Under the pieces are notes generated by a model. It searched no databases. It had not been told where the DNA came from and saw only the letters and a program-made list of their open reading frames with translations. The translations under genes were made by a program, and so were the position numbers. This document shows, in pieces, positions 3,143-14,669 of a stretch of DNA of 14,669 bases. Source of the stretch: a virus (lineage: Duplodnaviria > Heunggongvirae > Uroviricota > Caudoviricetes); IMG/VR virus record IMGVR_UViG_2740892230_000033, one strand, 5' to 3'. Numbering within the stretch: the first letter of the stretch is position 1; every line of letters begins with the position of its first letter.

Positions 3143-3877
3143 CTATTTATACAATACAGCACCGCTCTTTTTAGTTATATATGTGCAGTTCGATGGTATA
3201 TCTTTATTTATAAAAGACATTGCACCTATTTTTACATTATCCCCAATTTTACGGGATAATCCAATGATGCAACAATTAGCTCCGATATCAACGTTGCTAC
3301 CAATTTTTACTCTTGAACCAGGTATGTCACCATCTATCTGTCCAATGGTCGTATTCTGTCGTAACACCAGATTTTCACCAGCATCAACAGCAAAATGAAC
3401 AACAATTCCAGCATNNNNNNNNNNACTACCAATTTTCACTCTTGAACCAGGCATGTCACCATCTATCTGTCCAATGGTAGTATTCTGTCGTAATACCAGA
3501 TTTTCACCCGCATCAACAGCAAAATGAACAACAATTCCAGCATGATGGGGAATTGTTAACCCTTTTCCAATATTTGCGCCCAATCCAATTTCGCAACCAA
3601 ATTTGTTAATTATTTTACTGTTTAACTTCTTGGCTGCTTTCTTATGTAATTTATTACCATTAATATACATTTCGTTAGCCAACCGCCACCAGAAAAGGAA
3701 ATTCCTGTTACGCTGCTTTTTCTCTCTTAAAAGCCTCCAGATATCCATACGTTTCCGCCGAATTACTTCATGTTTCCAGAAGTTTTTTAAATTAGTAGAG
3801 TTCCCAAATAAAACAAAGTGAATTGCCATTAGGTAAGACAGCACGATAATCTCCTTAATTATTATTTCAGACCACAC
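3143..3877 (-). CDS. Hexapeptide-repeat (left-handed beta-helix) O-acetyltransferase, WcaB/CysE-like; low-GC cargo gene. The true start is probably the internal GTG at 3844 (AAGGAG 6 nt upstream) or the ATG at 3829; the ORF is lengthened by the duplication around the N gap at 3415-3424
   Basis: Motifs GCEIGLGANIGKGLTIPHHAGIVVHFAVDAGENLVLRQNTTIGQIDG and NVDIGANCCIIGLSRKIGDNVKIGAMSF match the serine/colanic-acid acetyltransferase hexapeptide pattern; AT-rich relative to flanking phage genes. Confidence 0.7.
   Translation of the reverse strand: MWSEIIIKEIIVLSYLMAIHFVLFGNSTNLKNFWKHEVIRRKRMDIWRLLREKKQRNRNFLFWWRLANEMYINGNKLHKKAAKKLNSKIINKFGCEIGLGANIGKGLTIPHHAGIVVHFAVDAGENLVLRQNTTIGQIDGDMPGSRVKIGSXXXXAGIVVHFAVDAGENLVLRQNTTIGQIDGDIPGSRVKIGSNVDIGANCCIIGLSRKIGDNVKIGAMSFINKDIPSNCTYITKKSGAVLYK
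3415..3424. other. N10 scaffold gap; about 3297-3414 is repeated at about 3426-3543 with a few substitutions
   Basis: Direct comparison of flanks. Confidence 0.95.
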
Positions 3878-4501: not shown

Positions 4502-7500
4502 TCAATCTTTATCGTAAAAACTGCCACGTCCGGCACGGGCGCGCCGTTCCATCTCTGCCCTGACCATTTCACCGACCAGTTTCGCCAGTTCGCGGGGATT
4601 CTGCGTAACAACGTTATGCAGATGAACATGAATTTCACCACCAAATCCGGAGGCAACAGGCTCCCGGTTACGGGAAGTTGCAGGCACTGATGCTACTGGT
4701 GATCGTATGGCCTCCGCCACCGGGCGGGTGCTGGCCGCAACAACAGGGACCAGCGCCGGAGGCAGCGGAGCCGAGACCACGGGTGTGATATTAATTGCGG
4801 GGGCAGGCTTACTGACCTGCGCAATCTTCTGCTCCTGCCACTCCCCACGAACAGCAAGTGCGCGGGGCAGGTTCTTAAAGACAATATCGCCGGGGCCAAT
4901 GCGTTTTTTCGTCTCATCAACCAGCTTACCTGTGTTATCAGCAATTTTGCTGAGTCTGCGTAGCGTCCCGGTATTGCTGTCTGTGAGCGGTTTGTTGTCT
5001 TTGGGTTTATCACCTCCGGTGCCATTGCCATTTTCTACAGGCTTTGGCGGATTGATTTTCGCAATGTCTCCCTGAAACAGAGCAACCTTGTCCTGAAGAA
5101 TGGCCGCACGCTGTGCGTCTTCGATTTTCTTGCGCGCCCTTTCCGCTTCATCCGGAAGGACACCAAGTTTTTCAAGTATCCACGCCAGCGTATCCAGTAG
5201 CATTTTTGCAGGTGTCAGAACAAGTTGTAACGCACCGCCAAGAACGTTACCGAATACCTCGCCAGCACTGGTGCATTTATCCAGCGTTTCCTTGCTGGAC
5301 TCCATCGNNNNNNNNNNCACACCGAGTTTTTCAAGTATCCACGCCAGCGTATCCAGCAACATTTTTGCAGGCGTCAGAACAAGCTGTAACGCTCCACCAA
5401 GAACGTTACCGAATATCTCGCCAGCACTGGTACATTTATCCAGCGTTTCCTTGCTGGACTCCATCGGTGACAACAGCGATTTAAACCAGTTAAACACCAG
5501 GCTGATCCCGCTTCCGATTGCGTCAAAAACAGGGCCAAACCGTTCAAAGGTTTCACGCAACGGGGTCAGCCTTTCCATAATCCCGCTGAACACCCCGGCA
5601 AAAAATGCCCTGATGGGATCCCAGTATTTCCAGATAAGAACGGCAGCTCCGGCAAGCGCAGCAACGACAAGACCAACCGGACTGAACAACGCCCCGATAG
5701 CGCCTCCCAGTAAAGAAACGGAACCCGTCACCATTCCCCATAGCGCAGGCAACACCCTGACGACATTCATTGACCGGGTAAGAATGTCAAAACCAATACG
5801 CAAGGTGGCCAGCTTCCCGTAAAGCACCCCANNNNNNNNNNCACGATAAGACCAACCGGACTGAACAGCGCCCCGATAGCGCCACCCAGCAAAGAAACAG
5901 AACCCGTCACCATTCCCCACAGCGCAGGCAACACCCTGATGACATTCATTGACCGGGTAAGAATGTCGAAACCAAGACGCAAGGTGGCCAGCTTCCCGTA
6001 AAGCACCCCAATAACCAGCGACAACGAGCCAATCGTTGCAGTCATTGCCAGCAACGCACCGCCTGCTATCAGTAGCTGGCGCGTCAGTACCGGATGGGCC
6101 TGCGCCAGCGAGGTGATTTTTTCAAGCACCCGCGTGAGCCACTGCGTGACAGAACGCAGCGGACCGTCAACCAGATCACTGATGCGAATACGAAGACCTT
6201 CCCATGCGCTGTCGAGATTTTTCAGGTCTCCATCAAGATTATCGGCCATTACTTTTGCAACGCGATCGGCCTCTCCCCTTGCCCCCTGCAATTCTCTGGT
6301 CAGTTTTTGCAGTTCTCCTGAACCAGCCGCCGCAACAAGCGTCTGCAAACCAACGAACGCCTCTTCTCCGGCAATGTCCTTGAAGAAGGAGACCTGGTCC
6401 ACCTGTCCGTATTTTTGTGTCGCCTTATAGAGATCAAGCAGCACATCCTCCATCGGGCGCATTTTGCCTCTGGCGTCAGCAACTGACACCCCCAGCTCTT
6501 TCAGTGCATCAGCCGCAGCTTTTGGCGGTGATGCAAGGCGGGACAGACTTGCGCGCATGGCCGTACCAGCATCGCTTCCGCGAAGACCATTATTGGCAAG
6601 CATCCCGGCCATGGCCGCCGCTTCTTCAAGACTGATACCAAGTTTTGCGGCAACCGGACCGGTATACTTCATGGTTTCGCCCAGCGCGCGTAAATCAGTA
6701 TTGGTCCGGGTGAATGCTGCTGTCAGCGTATCGCCAACCCGGTCCATTTGATCGGCTGTCAGGTTGAACTGTGTGAGGATATTGGAGCCTATATCAGCCG
6801 TCTCGCCGAGTTCGACGCCACCTGCCAGCGCCATATTAAGAACACCGGGCAATGCGGCCTGAATGGCCTGCGGAGTAAAACCAGCCATTGCCAGAAAGCT
6901 CTGCCCACTGGCGGCATCACTCGCAGTAAACTGTGTTTCAGAACCAAGTTTTAACGCCTGCTCACGCAGCGCCTTAAACTGCGGGCTGTTTTTGTCGATT
7001 CGCGTCAGTGCCTGAACGCGGGACATCTCTTTGCCGAACCCGATCGCAGGCTGCAAAAAACGCCCGGCAGCATAGCCGCCAGCCGCTGCAGCACCAATTG
7101 CCAGCGCACCACCTGTTTTCAGTTTTCCCGCGGTTTCCTGCGCGCGCGAATACCGCTCACGCGCCCGCGTTACACGCGCAAGCGCCTGCCGTTCGCGTTC
7201 AAGCTGGTTGTTGTACTGTTCGGTGCGTCTGATGGCCTGCTGGATGGTGTTATCGCTGCCTGTCAGGGAAATGCCGTGGCGTTTCAGCTCTCCGCCAAGC
7301 TCCCGCATTTTCTGAATTTCCCGTGTGCGCGATTCATTCAGGCGTTCAAGCCGGGTGCTTAACTGCTGCATCAGCTTTTGTTGTTTTTCGCTGAGCACTG
7401 TACCCGTGCGTTGTAACTGATTAAGGGCGTTAAGCTGGCGTCGTGCTTTCACGATGCCAGCATCCGCTTTACTGACAGCGTCACGGGCGCGCTCAAATGA

Positions 7501-8740: not shown

Positions 8741-10062
8741 CAGGCACCTCCCAGCACCGCAAATGCGGGACCAAAGAATTCATCAGTAAACGTCTGGTAA
8801 AGCTCCATGTCTTCCAGTGGCGGAACGGGCGTATATTTGTAGCGAATACGCACACGCCCCTGACGTAAATCCGTGGTGCTGTTATCCACCACGTCATACC
8901 AGCACTCCGCGCCTATCAGTTTCCCGGCAGTAACCAGTGAATCCAGCTTTGCCCTGATGGCACTGATTACATCCTTCACGTTCGCAGGCGTCAGTGGACT
9001 GTCGATGGTTTCAAACTGCGCTTCCGCAATTGAATCAGCCAGCACCTGTGCGGTTCGGGTATACACCTCAAAGATGTAGGCGTTCGTTTCCGGTGTGCGG
9101 TTGCCCCAGAAGCGGAACCCGTTGCGACGAATAATGGTCGTGATTTCTTTGTTGTTGAGGCTATTGGCATCGCTGTCTTCGGCCTGCAACGACCAGAACA
9201 CATGCCTGGACATTCCCAGCACATTTTTAACCGGAACGTTGGACAGCGATTTGTGCCAGCCCTGCTCATGGTCAATGCACGCACGAAGGCCGCACGCATA
9301 AGCAGGCGCGGGGAACGTTTCGTTTTTGCCACTTTNNNNNNNNNNCGACATCCCCAGCACATTTTTAACCGGAACGTTGGACAGTGATTTGTGCCATCCC
9401 TGCTCATGGTCAATGTACGCACGAAGGCCGCACGCATAGGCAGGCGCGGGGAACGTTTCGTTTTTGCCACTTTTCGGGTTGTAGGCGATGAAGTCCGGCC
9501 ATAAGAGCATCACCTCACGTTCGTTGAATTTCTGGCGGTAGGTAATCGCCTCAGCCATCGTGTTACAGCCGTGACATGAGGCATACACAAACGCGCGCAG
9601 TTTACCTGCAATCACGCACAGGGATTTTGTTACAGCCTCCGTGTCCAGCTCCGGCGCGGCCAGAATACGCGGACGGTATCCGATGCTTTCATCCTGCTCT
9701 GCAACAAGCAGCGCATACATCCCCGTATAGCTGCCGTCATCCTCAGAACCACCGATAACCAGTTGATCCTGCGTCTTTCCGTCTTCTTCTTTGTGTTCAG
9801 CCACGCGAACGACGATCACCTTTGTGCTCACCTGGTCTGCGATGGCCTTAAGCGCACGATAAAGCGTCCCCGTTGTCCCGCATTTTCCCAGCACGTCATT
9901 GACGCGGGTCAGCAGTGTGGGCTTATTCAGCGGGAACAGCTTCGCGTCCGCATCATCCGCCGTTGCCACGATACCGATAACGCTGGAATCAACATCGTTA
10001 ATCGCTGTTACCAGGTCGGTATTTTCCGTAACACGGGCACCATGAAAACGAGTTTCACTCAT
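8740..10062 (-). CDS. FI: Contractile tail sheath protein (P2 gpFI-like); lengthened by about 43 codons by the duplication around the N gap at 9336-9345
   Basis: Motifs FPLNKP, LRAFVYAS, EQGWHKSLSNV, RRNGFRFWGNRT and YKYTPVPPLE are characteristic of P2-type sheath proteins. Confidence 0.9.
   Translation of the reverse strand: MSETRFHGARVTENTDLVTAINDVDSSVIGIVATADDADAKLFPLNKPTLLTRVNDVLGKCGTTGTLYRALKAIADQVSTKVIVVRVAEHKEEDGKTQDQLVIGGSEDDGSYTGMYALLVAEQDESIGYRPRILAAPELDTEAVTKSLCVIAGKLRAFVYASCHGCNTMAEAITYRQKFNEREVMLLWPDFIAYNPKSGKNETFPAPAYACGLRAYIDHEQGWHKSLSNVPVKNVLGMSXXXXSGKNETFPAPAYACGLRACIDHEQGWHKSLSNVPVKNVLGMSRHVFWSLQAEDSDANSLNNKEITTIIRRNGFRFWGNRTPETNAYIFEVYTRTAQVLADSIAEAQFETIDSPLTPANVKDVISAIRAKLDSLVTAGKLIGAECWYDVVDNSTTDLRQGRVRIRYKYTPVPPLEDMELYQTFTDEFFGPAFAVLGGA
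9336..9345. other. N10 scaffold gap; about 9209-9335 is repeated at about 9346-9473 with a few substitutions
   Basis: Direct comparison of flanks. Confidence 0.95.
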
Positions 10063-11371: not shown

Positions 11372-11731
11372 ATGTTCCGTTGTCCGCTTTGTGGCGCATC
11401 TGCCCGTATCCGCACCAGTCGTCCTGAAAATGATTCAAACACCGTGCGGCAAAAGTATTACCAGTGTAACAACCTGGAATGCGGCGTATGCTTCTCAACA
11501 CTGGAAGCTTTCCATAAATTCACATCAAAACACACCTCCGGCGTTCACTCTTCAGAAGGTATCCCGTGGCATGAGCTGCCAGCTTCACACAGGGGAAACA
11601 ATCAGATGANNNNNNNNNNTACATCGAAACACGCCTCCGGCGTTCACTCATCAGAAGGTATCCCATGGCATGATCTGCCAGCTTCACACAGGGGAAACAA
11701 TCAGATGAGTTTGCCTTTACCTCAGAATTAA
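11372..11731 (+). CDS. ogr: Ogr-type zinc-finger late transcription activator; about 30 codons are duplicated around the N gap at 11610-11619 (de-duplicated length about 86 aa)
   Basis: MFRCPLCGASARIRTSR...YYQCNNLECGVCF has the Cys-x2-Cys ... Cys-x4-Cys arrangement and N-terminal similarity to P2 Ogr; SD AAGGGAGG upstream. Confidence 0.85.
   Translation: MFRCPLCGASARIRTSRPENDSNTVRQKYYQCNNLECGVCFSTLEAFHKFTSKHTSGVHSSEGIPWHELPASHRGNNQMXXXXTSKHASGVHSSEGIPWHDLPASHRGNNQMSLPLPQN
11610..11619. other. N10 scaffold gap; about 11521-11609 is repeated at about 11620-11708 with a few substitutions
   Basis: Direct comparison of flanks. Confidence 0.95.
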
Positions 11732-11922
11732 CAGGCAGAATTGCCGGAGTAACAAAAAAGCGATAGATTACGCGCGGGTGCCTTTCGGCTGATGGTCGGA
11801 GGGAATACCCGAAGGCCAGATGTGGAAAGGCCCCGGAAAACATTTCTGTTTAACCGAGGCCCTAACATATCTACCTTAAGCAAGTGATAGGTTAGCGCCT
11901 CTCCAACAAAGGAGCAAGCGCT

Positions 11923-12055
11923 ATGTCGCAAAAATCGCTTACGGCCATCACGTTCTGCGTGACGGTAATCCTCATCATCTGGATGCTACACGGTTCGCTG
12001 TGTGAAATACGGATGAGCTTCTGGGGAGCGGAGTTTGCGGCGTTCTTACAGTGTA
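11923..12055 (+). CDS. Hok/Gef-family type I toxin homolog, copy 1; the 3' end runs into the N gap at 12056
   Basis: MSQKSLTAITFCVTVILIIWMLHGSLCEIRMSFWGAEFAAFLQC: transmembrane segment followed by the LCE[IL]R ... E[FI]AAF signature of Hok proteins; SD AAGGAG 8 nt upstream. Confidence 0.65.
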
Positions 12056-12065
12056 NNNNNNNNNN
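12056..12065. other. N10 scaffold gap between the two hok-like copies; here the flanks are paralog-level diverged, not near-identical
   Basis: Direct comparison of flanks. Confidence 0.95.
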
Positions 12066-12120
12066 CTTCTTACCTTCGCAAGTAGAAGGTTAGCGCCTCT
12101 CCTCTCAGGAGACAAGCGTT

Positions 12121-12261
12121 ATGACGCAAATTCCGTTAAAAACCCTGTTACTTTGCATAACTGCGGTAGCGATAATCTGGATCCTCCACACATCACCGTG
12201 CGAGTTACGATTCAGGTTTGCTGGCACGGAAATTGCGGCATTCTTACTATGTAATAAGTAA
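12121..12261 (+). CDS. Hok/Gef-family type I toxin homolog, copy 2 (46 aa, complete)
   Basis: MTQIPLKTLLLCITAVAIIWILHTSPCELRFRFAGTEIAAFLLCNK; SD AGGAGA 8 nt upstream; the leader GGTTAGCGCCTCTCC is conserved with copy 1. Confidence 0.7.
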   Translation: MTQIPLKTLLLCITAVAIIWILHTSPCELRFRFAGTEIAAFLLCNK

Positions 12262-12270
12262 GATAACCGC

Positions 12271-12292
12271 GACGGGGGAGTAATCCCCCGTC
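12271..12292 (+). other. Perfect 9-bp hairpin with GUAA tetraloop immediately 3' of hok-like copy 2; possible mRNA stability or fold-back element
   Basis: GACGGGGGA GTAA TCCCCCGTC read directly from the sequence. Confidence 0.6.
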
Positions 12293-12349
12293 AATCGGTT
12301 GCTAAGGTTGGTCGAAACGGCACCCTATCTCACAGACATGAACAACAAA

Positions 12350-12381
12350 CCCGCAGCGTAAAAACTGCGGGTTTTCTTTTT
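12350..12381 (+). terminator. Rho-independent terminator after the hok-like genes
   Basis: Stem CCCGCAG / CTGCGGG with 8-nt loop, followed by TTTTCTTTTT. Confidence 0.8.
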
Positions 12382-12428
12382 GCTACCCTCACAAATGAGG
12401 GCACCATACATGAGCAATAGGCATAACA

Positions 12429-12466
12429 GATCGATGCAATAAATCCGATCGATAAAAACGATCGAT
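12429..12466 (+). promoter_or_regulatory. Cluster of three GATC (Dam) sites, each within a GATCGAT heptamer, spaced 18 and 13 bp, about 45-80 bp upstream of the com-like gene
   Basis: GATC at 12429, 12447 and 12460 read directly; resembles the Dam-sensing GATC triad of the phage Mu mom promoter region. Confidence 0.6.
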
Positions 12467-12510
12467 TTGTTATCATATCGGCAGCAGTAACCACACAAGA
12501 GGTGCCGCAA

Positions 12511-12708
12511 ATGACGCAAAATGTACGATGCAAAAATTGCAACAAACTACTTGCCCGCGCCTCATTTCACTACATTGAAATAAAATGTCCGCGCTGCAAA
12601 ACACTTAACCAGATAACGAGAGCCATCGAGCACCCCACACACATGAGGAGTTATGACCGTGGGGATCGCAATCCAGCACCAACCAGCACATACACCGGAA
12701 CACACTAA
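12511..12708 (+). CDS. com: Com-like zinc-finger translational activator (phage Mu Com homolog)
   Basis: MTQNVRCKNCNKLLARASFHYIEIKCPRCKTL...EHPT closely matches the Mu Com pattern RCKNCNKLL...HIEIRCPRCK...EHPT; SD AAGAGG 9 nt upstream of the ATG at 12511; the 3' end overlaps the start of the next gene. Confidence 0.75.
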   Translation: MTQNVRCKNCNKLLARASFHYIEIKCPRCKTLNQITRAIEHPTHMRSYDRGDRNPAPTSTYTGTH

Positions 12709-13444
12709 GGTTTATCAGACTGACAATGCCACGCTCTGTCGTGGGAATGCGCTGGAAATATTGCCGCTGATTGAGCCAGAAAGCATTGATGCCTTAATCA
12801 CTGACCCGCCTTACAGTTCGGGTGCGACACACAAGGCCGGACGCACCAACCAGGGCAGCCATGCAAAATATCTGAACGGCGAGAACCTTCACCGCTTTGA
12901 TGGGTTCGCGGGTGAAAACATGGACGCCCGTTCGTGGGCTTACTGGACACAATTATGGATGGCACAGGCACACCGCGCAGTCAGGCCGGGCGGTTATGCC
13001 CTGGTATTTACTGACTGGCGACAACTACCAGCTTTAACCGATGCGTTTCAGGCCAGTGGCTTTACATGGCGCGGCATCATTGCGTGGAACAAGGGGAGGG
13101 GGTCACGAACACCACATACCGGGTATTTCCGGCATCAGTGCGAATACATCGTCTGGGGCAGCAAAGGCCATTTAGATAAATCGCCTTCGGGACCGTTCGA
13201 CGGCTGCATGACGTTCCCGGTTATCCCGTCAAAGAAAATGCACCCGACCGGAAAACCAGAAGAACTAATGGTGGAACTGGTCAGGACTGTGAATAGTGGC
13301 GGGACAATCCTCGATCCTTTTATGTGGTCAGGGACAACGGGTGTGGCTGCACTGAAAGCAGGACGCAAATTTATTGGTATAGAAACCAGTGATCATTATT
13401 TTGATGTAGCAACACAACGGCTCAAAACGGCGATCGAACCATAA
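12653..13444 (+). CDS. Beta-class amino (N6-adenine or N4-cytosine) DNA methyltransferase; the start may be the GTG at 12659 (GAGGAG 8 nt upstream) rather than the ATG at 12653
   Basis: DPPY (motif IV) near the N-terminus and DPFMWSGTTG (motif I, AdoMet binding) near the C-terminus; this order is typical of the beta subgroup. Confidence 0.85.
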   Translation: MTVGIAIQHQPAHTPEHTKVYQTDNATLCRGNALEILPLIEPESIDALITDPPYSSGATHKAGRTNQGSHAKYLNGENLHRFDGFAGENMDARSWAYWTQLWMAQAHRAVRPGGYALVFTDWRQLPALTDAFQASGFTWRGIIAWNKGRGSRTPHTGYFRHQCEYIVWGSKGHLDKSPSGPFDGCMTFPVIPSKKMHPTGKPEELMVELVRTVNSGGTILDPFMWSGTTGVAALKAGRKFIGIETSDHYFDVATQRLKTAIEP

Positions 13445-13450
13445 GACAAA

Positions 13451-13468
13451 GCCCGCAATGTTGCGGGC
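13451..13468 (+). terminator. Hairpin after the methyltransferase gene; weak T-tract, possible terminator
   Basis: GCCCGC AATGTT GCGGGC followed by TTACTCT. Confidence 0.45.
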
Positions 13469-13673
13469 TTACTCTACCTCTCGAAAATGTGGTCACTGCG
13501 TGGACATACGCTGATACAAATCCTTTTATATCAATAAATTAAATCTTTGTTTTTTTCATCAACAAGGATTTTCACGTTTGTGTTACCTGTATGAGACGAG
13601 AGTTAACCGGACAAGTGTGCCATAATCTCGCGGCCAGGCATACTTGCGAAGATTTCAGGTATAAGGATACGTA

Positions 13674-14669
13674 ATGATACAACCTATTTCCGGCCCTCCT
13701 CCTGGGCAACCACCAGGTCAGGGAGATAACCTGCCGTCTGGCGCGGGCAATCAGCCTTTATCCAGTCAGCAACGTACTTCGCTGGAAAGCTTAATGACGA
13801 AAGTGACCTCACTGACGCAACAGCAAAGAGCAGAACTGTGGGCGGGTATCAGGCACGATATTGGTCTGTCGGGAGATTCACCGCTGCTTTCGCGTCACTT
13901 CCCTGCCGCTGAGCATAACCTGGCGCAACGTCTGCTGGCCGCGCAAAAAAGCCATTCTGCCCGCCAGCTTTTAGCGCAATTAGGGGAGTATTTACGTCTG
14001 GGGAATAATCGTCAGGCGGTCACGGATTATATCCGTCATAACTTTGGTCAGACGCCGCTGAATCAGCTCTCACCGGAGCAATTAAAAACCATTCTCACCC
14101 TGTTGCAGGAAGGGAAGATGGTTATTCCGCAACCACAGCAGCGCGAGGCGACCGACCGTCCTTTATTACCGGCGGAGCACAATGCGCTAAAACAGCTGGT
14201 GACCAAACTTGCGGCGGCAACGGGGGAACCCAGCAAACAGATCTGGCAATCGATGCTGGAACTTTCCGGGGTGAAAGATGGCGAGTTAATTCCAGCGAAA
14301 CTGTTTAACCATCTGGTGACCTGGCTACAGGCGCGTCAGACGCTAAGCCAGCAAAATACGCCGACGCTGGAATCACTACAGATGACGCTAAAACAACCTT
14401 TAGATGCCAGTGAACTGGCGGCGTTATCGGCATATATCCAGCAAAAATATGGTCTTTCTGCGCAATCATCGCTTTCTTCTGCCCAGGCCGAGGATATTCT
14501 TAATCAGCTTTATCAACGGCGGGTTAAAGGGATTGATCCGCGTGTTATGCAACCGCTGCTTAATCCTTTTCCACCGATGATGGACACGTTGCAAAATATG
14601 GCAACGCGTCCCGCGCTGTGGATACTGTTAGTCGCGATTATCCTGATGCTGGTCTGGCTGGTTCGTTAA
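13674..14669 (+). CDS. flk: Host flagellar regulator Flk (C-tail-anchored membrane protein); marks chromosomal backbone
   Basis: 331 aa, Gln-rich, with a single C-terminal hydrophobic anchor (PALWILLVAIILMLVWLVR) and N-terminus MIQPISGPPPGQPPGQ consistent with enterobacterial Flk as I recall it; not phage-like. Confidence 0.75.
   Translation: MIQPISGPPPGQPPGQGDNLPSGAGNQPLSSQQRTSLESLMTKVTSLTQQQRAELWAGIRHDIGLSGDSPLLSRHFPAAEHNLAQRLLAAQKSHSARQLLAQLGEYLRLGNNRQAVTDYIRHNFGQTPLNQLSPEQLKTILTLLQEGKMVIPQPQQREATDRPLLPAEHNALKQLVTKLAAATGEPSKQIWQSMLELSGVKDGELIPAKLFNHLVTWLQARQTLSQQNTPTLESLQMTLKQPLDASELAALSAYIQQKYGLSAQSSLSSAQAEDILNQLYQRRVKGIDPRVMQPLLNPFPPMMDTLQNMATRPALWILLVAIILMLVWLVR

Follow-up and report, generated by a model that had tools for sequence, protein, structure and literature searches.

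A probable Mu-type com control cassette carrying a beta-class DNA amino-methyltransferase at the right end of a P2-like prophage

The window analyzed here is the whole 14,669-nucleotide sequence of the tailed-phage record IMGVR_UViG_2740892230_000033, in which a small gene, com, overlaps a DNA methyltransferase gene. The locus forms the right-hand end of a P2-like prophage that resides in Escherichia coli. Over 1.2 kb it was 99.3% identical to complete E. coli chromosomes, in which RefSeq lists late control D, Ogr/Delta zinc finger, Hok/Gef, "Com family DNA-binding transcriptional regulator", and "DNA-methyltransferase", followed by host flk. In phage Chuche, which is 95% identical, this pair sits between ogr/hok and attP-int-C-cox and carries the annotations "gpCom control of modification" and "DNA methyltransferase". 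The best explanation, which we consider probable, is that the gene pair belongs to a control cassette of the phage Mu com type in which the payload is a beta-class amino-methyltransferase, and that the cassette is a self-contained cargo between ogr/hok and the attachment site of the prophage. Judging from the sequence, its transcription would start from an extended -10 sigma-70 promoter whose -35 element and spacer lie inside an OxyR-type operator with three Dam sites. Com would be the first product of the transcript, and the start of the methyltransferase (GUG 12659, AUG 12653, and their Shine-Dalgarno (SD) sequence) would be locked in a hairpin that Com opens.

The first gene of the pair is a 65-codon open reading frame (ORF; ATG 12511, stop 12708) with the residues RCKNCNKLL...IEIKCPRCK...EHPT. 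Its product matched the Com profile PF10122 with 44.6 bits (cut-off 22.9, E = 9.5e-12) and was 60% identical to Mu Com over the 42 residues of the zinc ribbon, so that the resemblance to Com proposed in the initial annotation was borne out. The cysteines are C7, C10, C26, and C29 (C6, C9, C26, and C29 in Mu), and residues R6, C7, C10, K12, L13, L14, E23, C26, R28, C29, and K30 were invariant among 21 homologues. A search of solved structures with the Com sequence returned weak matches to eS27 zinc ribbons and no closer ones. Com has been characterized as an RNA-binding translational activator (PMC6483171, PMC3299994), and the RefSeq product name of WP_001353016.1 and its relatives, given above, conflicts with this experimental literature.

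The second ORF, starting at ATG 12653 or GTG 12659, overlaps com by 56 or 50 nucleotides (nt), respectively. Its product matched PF01555 with 106 bits (cut-off 26.7) and had no match to PF02086, the Dam/D12 family. The motif DPPY at residue 50 lies N-terminal to DPFMWSGTTG (residues 221-230), which is the motif order of the beta class (IV before I), unlike that of Dam. A profile search of the two ORFs thus recovered PF10122 and PF01555, and the initial view of the enzyme as a beta-class amino-methyltransferase distinct from Dam stands. The closest solved relatives were the M1.HpyAVI/DpnA-type structure 5HEK (E = 1.7e-19) and CcrM. These point to N6-adenine, without proving it, and the enzyme is probably of the N6-adenine type. 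As for its start, GTG 12659 is located 8 nt after GAGGAG and ATG 12653 is located 2 nt after it. The GUG in the 3' arm of the start hairpin is the annotated payload start in the mom and C5-methyltransferase loci of Sp18-type prophages, and the homologous GUG of Mu lies 10 codons inside the annotated mom ORF. Starting there, Mu Mom would have 231 residues, which matches its length in UniProt. Homologues that are not linked to com lack the first ~17 residues. Given the homology with the Sp18-type and Mu GUG, the most likely start would be GTG 12659 and not the ATG 12653 used by RefSeq.

Mu Com binds the 19-mer GAAUGCCUGCGAGCAUCCC, and in vitro selection (SELEX) yielded the motif CC(N)2-3GAG in a small hairpin adjoining a translation-inhibition structure (PMC6483171). 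At 12618-12636 the window was identical to the Mu 19-mer at 14 of 19 positions and had CC-AUC-GAG (CC-N3-GAG) preserved. We fetched 80 Com loci from GTDB genomes, 71 of them unique, and found GCC-N2-3-GAG at 15-54 nt after the second CxxC in 58 of the unique loci, compared with 2.9 +/- 1.6 in shuffled sequences. The flanking 4-bp stem covaries at its two variable pairs, 3 and 4 (U-A, C-G, G-C, A-U), which were paired in 45/54 and 49/54 distinct sites versus 33/108 and 20/108 in shifted-register controls. The family-wide motif can be written GA-NNGC-C-N(1-3)-GA-GCNN-C, with a near-invariant A...C pair (52/54). In Haemophilus the motif follows the com stop codon and is therefore non-coding RNA, which indicates that it is the RNA, and not the protein, that is constrained; this also accounts for the EHPT residues quoted in the initial annotation. 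No Rfam family matched the Com site or the hairpin in the window, where the sole match was sok, upstream.

Folding of the methyltransferase start region, which had been suggested from the beginning, placed the SD sequence and the start in a hairpin of -17.5 kcal/mol (z = -2.9) that none of 200 shuffled sequences equaled in stability, and both AUG 12653 and GUG 12659 were paired. The arms of this hairpin were also present in Mu (CCCAC/GUGGG), in L010, L007, Citrobacter L005, and the Sp18-type loci, regardless of payload, i.e., they were conserved across Mom, C5, and beta-class payloads. In E. coli D72 (L084, com at 1630-1773), one CA unit is lost from the CACACACA tract in the hairpin loop. The resulting frameshift yields a com stop overlapping the methyltransferase ATG (TTATGA, an ATGA stop-start overlap) and a Com of 47 residues with intact zinc ribbon and EHPT. 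The (CA)4 tract at window positions 12636-12643 could be a slippage site.

The GATCGAT heptamers described at 12429, 12447, and 12460 were present, all on the + strand, and were the only three in the window. Three GATC within 31 bp are not rare by chance (309/2000 dinucleotide shuffles); the exact 18/13 spacing was obtained in 2/2000 shuffles and three GATCGAT in 0/2000. Since GATC is somewhat depleted across the window as a whole (36 vs. 49.6 +/- 6.7 expected; 196/200 shuffles had at least 36), the local triad stands out further. The GATCs upstream of com in Mu (L002, positions 660, 678, and 691) have the same spacing of 18 + 13 bp, and 30/39 positions of this region were identical between Mu and the window. 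In agn43 the spacing is 19+13. We scored the OxyR tetramer consensus as a 37-mer (ATAGnTnnnAnCTAT-N7-ATAGnTnnnAnCTAT), and the top scores in the window, 15/20, started at 12417 and 12426, with scores of at least 13 at only 12 of ~29,000 positions. In gtr of phage P22, GATC pairs 13 bp apart lie within OxyR half-sites (PMC2909390), and the 13-bp pair of the window fits the half-site layout described there.

Conservation of the triad upstream of com-methyltransferase pairs, on which the initial annotation had made its reading depend, was found. The methyltransferase occurred in 184 of 5,426 complete E. coli genomes and the 61-nt regulatory stretch in 173, and the latter was identical or nearly so in 111 records. 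L210, the most divergent E. coli variant, has altered spacer bases, yet its spacing and every one of the 12 GATC bases match the window. Homology with L210 breaks just upstream of the first GATC, and the predicted operator is the left edge of the conserved cassette. Among the Com loci, a GATC triad or pair was restricted to Enterobacterales-type sequences, one of which carries a Vagococcus label. In this record (L004, Vagococcus sp. WN89Y), only one GATC remains ahead of com (region ~51-130 nt upstream) because 31 bp have been deleted between GATCGAT repeats; its Com shares 92% identity with that of E. coli, and the label is therefore probably due to contamination. Taken together with the zinc ribbon, the Com RNA target, and the hairpin, the identical GATC spacing upholds the relationship with Mu com-mom that had been proposed, and the triad is, as far as sequence can tell, the same type of operator as in Mu by homology and not by mere resemblance. 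One could also argue that GATCGAT (or ATCGAT, or CGATCG) is the target of the enzyme itself, which would feed back on its own promoter. All three repeats are indeed perfect heptamers here and only GATC is needed in Mu and agn43, but L210 has GATCAAT at the third site, and Mom and C5-methyltransferase payloads have similar triads or pairs upstream of them, which makes this a far-fetched reading.

Within 12100-13700, the sole promoter-like site (TCGATA-16 bp-TGtTATCAT) was that at 12449-12476. The transcription start inferred from it, near 12483, puts the three GATCs at about -54, -36, and -23, the second inside the predicted -35 element and the third inside the spacer. The predicted promoter was invariant among window-type copies; at the corresponding offset, Citrobacter L005 reads TATACT. 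A promoter scan and sequence reading found no other promoter between the hok terminator and the first GATC. The hok/gef terminator itself, a strong one, lies outside the cassette and is predicted to insulate it from upstream transcription. The Mu promoter Pmom has a C-activator site, weak -35 and -10 hexamers, a 19-bp spacer, and a T-tract. In our alignment, a ~33-nt block of its C-dependent core (T-tract, TAAGAT, and leader) was missing from the window, L005, and the L087/Sp18 type, and the distance from the third GATC to the com ATG is 51 nt here versus 78 in Mu. This block belongs to the C-dependent late promoter, which has been described in general terms (PMC3378877). The sequence TAACCACAC, resembling the Mu -35 region, survives 1 nt before the com SD sequence, a position that led us to reject it as a working -35 element. 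The Ogr-type dyad TGT-N12-ACA, located near -55 in P2 late promoters, had two matches in the window, at 2241 and 12586 (inside com), and none upstream of com, so that an Ogr-type late promoter for the cassette was rejected. A terminator-like call at 12446-12464 (CGATCG-N7-CGATCG) was likewise discarded as a by-product of two palindromic CGATCG, with a weak T-tail and a location inside the promoter.

If these elements work as predicted, OxyR would bind and occlude the promoter when the GATCs are unmethylated or hemimethylated, and full methylation would exclude OxyR and open the promoter. Com would then bind the CC-N3-GAG hairpin directly 5' of the methyltransferase start and open the start hairpin. 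The enzyme would be made only after Com has accumulated, so that a threshold inherent in the cassette would guard against leaky synthesis of a DNA modifier that may be harmful. Because com is the first cistron of the same mRNA, Com would add a delay and a threshold and not a separate signal, and the "Com-licensed" state of the initial annotation thus contributes no independent information. The same annotation regarded expression as probably lytic, i.e., as in Mu, with Dam sensing and Com licensing late expression. Precedents for this exist, as mom is a late function in Mu (PMC3299994, PMC3378877) and the prophage-borne M.EcoGI and M.EcoGII are silent in normal growth (PMC5778455). However, the late timing in Mu derives from the C activator acting on a weak promoter, and that block is missing here; no Ogr-type dyad lies upstream, the terminator blocks read-through from ogr/hok, and the operator overlaps a predicted sigma-70 extended -10 promoter. 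Moreover, OxyR also binds hemimethylated Pmom DNA, according to the title of a work cited in PMC3378877, so that rapid replication should shut the promoter and not induce it. We therefore regard lytic-only expression as quite unlikely.

A different refinement is suggested by the operator, the predicted layout of which is closer to agn43 or gtr than to Mu. Under a phase switch of the agn43 type, lysogens would be heritably OFF (OxyR bound, GATCs shielded from Dam) or ON (GATCs methylated, OxyR kept off), and only ON cells would make Com and the enzyme. In its favor, the GATC geometry is near that of agn43 and shares the 13-bp pairing with gtr, which is phage-borne and phase-variable; we found no activator site, the predicted promoter has its -35 element and spacer within the operator, and whether mom itself phase-varies has been stated to be unsettled (PMC2909390). 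On the other hand, switching needs a finely balanced OxyR affinity, which is beyond sequence prediction, and the homologous Mu site is not known to phase-vary. We hold this switch as a tentative possibility, which refines the best explanation and does not exclude it. The fuller claim, that the prophage uses an agn43-type Dam/OxyR switch together with a Com threshold to set a second methyltransferase heritably on or off in each cell, appears unlikely. Alternatively, the triad may be an inherited relic or may act independently of OxyR, either through methylation affecting RNA polymerase at the -35 element or through binding of SeqA to clustered hemimethylated GATCs, which their spacing would suit. 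The positions of the second and third GATC in the -35 element and spacer, and the loss of two of the three sites by deletion in L004, would agree with this. Yet the triad is strictly conserved in the 173 genomes and in the spacer-diverged variant, and its geometry matches two OxyR sites reported to have been defined by experiment, those of agn43 and Mu. A relic or OxyR-independent triad is thus improbable.

Several observations weigh against the com-cassette explanation that we favor. The match to the OxyR consensus is imperfect and its half-site register, 12417 or 12426, is ambiguous; the promoter is a consensus match only; the stem of the window-type Com site has an A.A mismatch at pair 3; and the hairpin arms are invariant, which leaves conservation without covariation. 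If the promoter were simply open in dam+ cells, lysogens should methylate constitutively, and a literature search found no methylome report for or against this. Finally, the methyltransferase copy of the window has a private substitution, G225W (GGG to TGG), that turns DPFMGSGTTG into DPFMWSGTTG, so that the S-adenosylmethionine (AdoMet) loop FxGxG is not intact and reads F-M-W-S-G. The initial annotation quoted this motif without flagging the W. Glycine was found at this position in 12/12 other window-type copies, in 111/111 homologues with the motif, in 5HEK, and in CcrM. Because the substitution hits an otherwise invariant glycine of the AdoMet loop, it is probably disabling and this copy may be inactive. 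It is one of five private substitutions within 54 nt (13272-13325), namely A207V, V219I, G225W, and two synonymous ones; outside this cluster, the gene differs from L001 at a single position. The best match of the 86 nt at 13260-13345 in complete E. coli genomes was 95.3% identical. Recombination, clustered mutation, or a sequencing or draft-assembly error could each have produced it.

The right border of the cassette can be placed by comparing two E. coli Sp18-type Mu-like prophages, L086 and L087. These were 94-100% identical for 400 nt up to GUGGGG and ~30% identical thereafter (locus position 2142). One of the strains has a C5 cytosine methyltransferase (PF00145) as payload and the other has Mom. 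The breakpoint is no more than a few nucleotides away from the hairpin GUG at which the payload starts, which marks this GUG as the right border. In Citrobacter braakii (L005), a C5 enzyme begins with VGNK at GUGGGG. Over the 80 Com loci fetched, com followed by a methyltransferase was the commonest arrangement. Payloads were mostly of the D12/alpha type as judged from the position of DPPY (two confirmed as PF02086), and the others comprised PF01555 enzymes in Pseudoalteromonas and Cellvibrionaceae, Mom, C5 enzymes, and some unassigned proteins. Among window-type loci, com was directly upstream of the methyltransferase in all seven E. coli and phage Chuche loci with annotation inspected. This survey and the literature indicate that the pairing of Com with a methyltransferase is the rule. 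The methyltransferase "instead of Mom" of the initial annotation, if read as something new, does not hold up: the pairing is already published (PMC3299994, PMC3091744) and annotated in RefSeq/PGAP and in Chuche.

Screening IMG/VR for the triad with the pattern GATCG-N13-GATCG-N8-GATC proved too unspecific. Among the 121 matches listed, 5 were followed by com, 4 identical to the window type and 1 Mu-like, and the remaining ones were mostly chance matches in G+C-rich sequence. A draft genome of Methylophaga thiooxydans DMS010 had at least 12 identical com and D12-methyltransferase loci (L014, L021, L027-L036), many at contig ends, which suggests a multi-copy transposable Mu-like element or an assembly-breaking repeat. 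In the literature we found no paper on the E. coli P2-type com-methyltransferase or its GATC triad and no mention of the RefSeq accessions of the pair, and the ST131 and O145 methylome papers are silent on the cassette.

These results suggest that Mu com control comes as a portable unit, bordered on the left by the OxyR/Dam operator and on the right by the hairpin GUG, into which enterobacterial phages put Mom, C5, or beta-class methyltransferases, and that this unit can do without a transposable phage and without the C activator of Mu. What we add are these borders, the likely GTG start, a family-wide Com RNA motif that has no Rfam family, an operator placed on a sigma-70 promoter after loss of the C-dependent promoter, and a probable loss-of-function allele. 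For annotation, the payload start is probably GTG 12659, where RefSeq uses ATG, and the RefSeq product name of com misdescribes an RNA-binding translational activator. Should the operator behave like that of agn43, an orphan methyltransferase subject to phase variation would be present in ~3% of complete E. coli genomes. In that case, subpopulations of lysogens would differ in their methylomes and their phage progeny in restriction resistance, without slippage at simple sequence repeats.

Table 1. Positions of the com cassette elements and adjoining features in the window
Feature	Position	Strand	Basis and details
Intrinsic terminator of upstream hok/gef gene	12347..12381	+	10-11 bp G+C stem, then TTTTCTTTTT
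Predicted Dam/OxyR operator	12426..12466	.	Three GATC (12429, 12447, 12460), 18 + 13 bp apart; spacing, OxyR consensus, conservation
Predicted sigma-70 extended -10 promoter	12449..12476	+	-35 TCGATA 12449-54, 16-bp spacer, TG 12468-69, -10 TATCAT 12471-76
com SD sequence	12497..12504	+	AAGAGGTG; sequence reading; ends 6 nt before ATG 12511
com, 65-residue Com-family zinc-ribbon RNA-binding translational activator	12511..12708	+	Homology
Predicted Com-binding RNA site	12618..12636	+	GAGAGCCAUCGAGCACCCC (GCC 12622-24, AUC, GAG 12628-30); likeness to Mu 19-mer, SELEX motif
Predicted translation-inhibition hairpin	12633..12664	+	Outer arms CCCCAC (12633-38)/GUGGGG (12659-64); inner stem pairs AUG 12653; SD GGAG in 4-nt loop
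Beta-class (PF01555) DNA amino-methyltransferase	12659..13444	+	Probable start GTG 12659, RefSeq start ATG 12653; DPPY 12800-12811, motif I 13313-13342
Codon TGG (Trp), private, replacing first Gly of AdoMet-binding FxGxG	13325..13327	+	Comparison with homologues
Terminator-like hairpin closing the module, just before prophage/flk junction	13449..13470	.	Scan scored - strand only
flk ORF	13674		ORF list, RefSeq

The surroundings of the cassette (Table 1) differ in sequence quality. Eight runs of exactly 10 N occur in the window, at 980-989, 2960-2969, 3415-3424, 5308-5317, 5832-5841, 9336-9345, 11610-11619, and 12056-12065, and the stretch 12066-14669, with the com cassette, is free of gaps. 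The last two gaps are bordered by near-duplicate sequence, with the 3' end of ogr present twice and two hok genes. The N runs and these near-duplicates indicate that the window is a scaffold of short contigs, and that at least two P2-like prophages were probably present in the source genome. The second copies of ogr and hok are only apparent, being artefacts of the assembly. A hok/sok-type toxin-antitoxin locus is found at 11776-11933 and 11923-12261, with Hok/Gef ORFs at 11923-12093 (cut by the gap) and 12121-12261. The Rfam match to sok scored 47.9 bits (E = 3.9e-9), short of the gathering threshold of 59. The stretch from the hok terminator to the cassette, outside the conserved part, contains an inverted repeat CCCTCA-N4-TGAGGG (12386-12401). 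Its arms are preserved in L083, carry a compensatory double change in Salmonella L003 (TCCTCA...TGAGGA), and show a single mismatch in L004, and the repeat is missing from L085 and L210.

Comparison with known systems places the cassette closest to Mu com-mom in its translational part. Both share the Com zinc ribbon, the Com RNA target, the CCCAC/GUGGG hairpin, a payload probably read from a GUG inside com, and the GATC triad. They differ in the payload, which here is a beta-class methyltransferase unrelated to Mom, in the promoter, as the T-tract spacer, the -10 TAAGAT, and the leader of Mu have no counterpart here and the predicted extended -10 promoter overlaps the operator, and in the host element, a P2-like and not a transposable phage. 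The Sp18-type E. coli prophages have the same "short" upstream architecture, Com site, CCCCAC/GUGGGG hairpin, and GUG start, but only two GATCs (one 13-bp pair), no obvious -10, and other payloads.

Com is also encoded upstream of non-specific adenine methyltransferases, i.e., Hin1523 of FluMu, Nma1821 of Pnm1, Hia5, and B3 ORF47/48, for which Com-type control has been proposed (PMC3299994). The window shares with these the location of com directly upstream of a methyltransferase in the position of mom. In contrast, the FluMu-type locus of H. influenzae (L055) and the Com payloads with DPPY near residue 180 had no BLAST similarity to the window enzyme and no GATC triad. Two of the latter (L014, L018) are D12/alpha-class PF02086 enzymes, and L055 itself had no Pfam match. 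By BLAST, then, the window enzyme does not belong to the D12-class non-specific group of the Hia5/Hin1523 type. In the Burkholderia P2-like phage KS5, the "Com translational regulator" gp21 overlaps the N-4/N-6 DNA methylase gp20 (PMC3091744). KS5 thus resembles the window in being a P2-like phage with overlapping com and PF01555 methyltransferase cargo; it differs in its Burkholderia host and in the position of the cargo, between tail-fibre assembly and sheath genes, and no Dam/OxyR operator has been described for it. Lastly, agn43 (flu) and P22 gtr have in common with the window a cluster of GATCs within an OxyR site (a predicted one in the window) placed on or next to a sigma-70 promoter and lacking any further activator, at spacings of 19+13 in agn43, 13-bp pairs in gtr, and 18+13 in the window. 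If the 5' end of the annotated IsrC RNA is taken as the flu start, the GATCs of agn43 begin at this point and lie downstream of the start, whereas those of the window would lie upstream of theirs, and the window adds to the operator of agn43 and gtr a predicted translational gate, Com.

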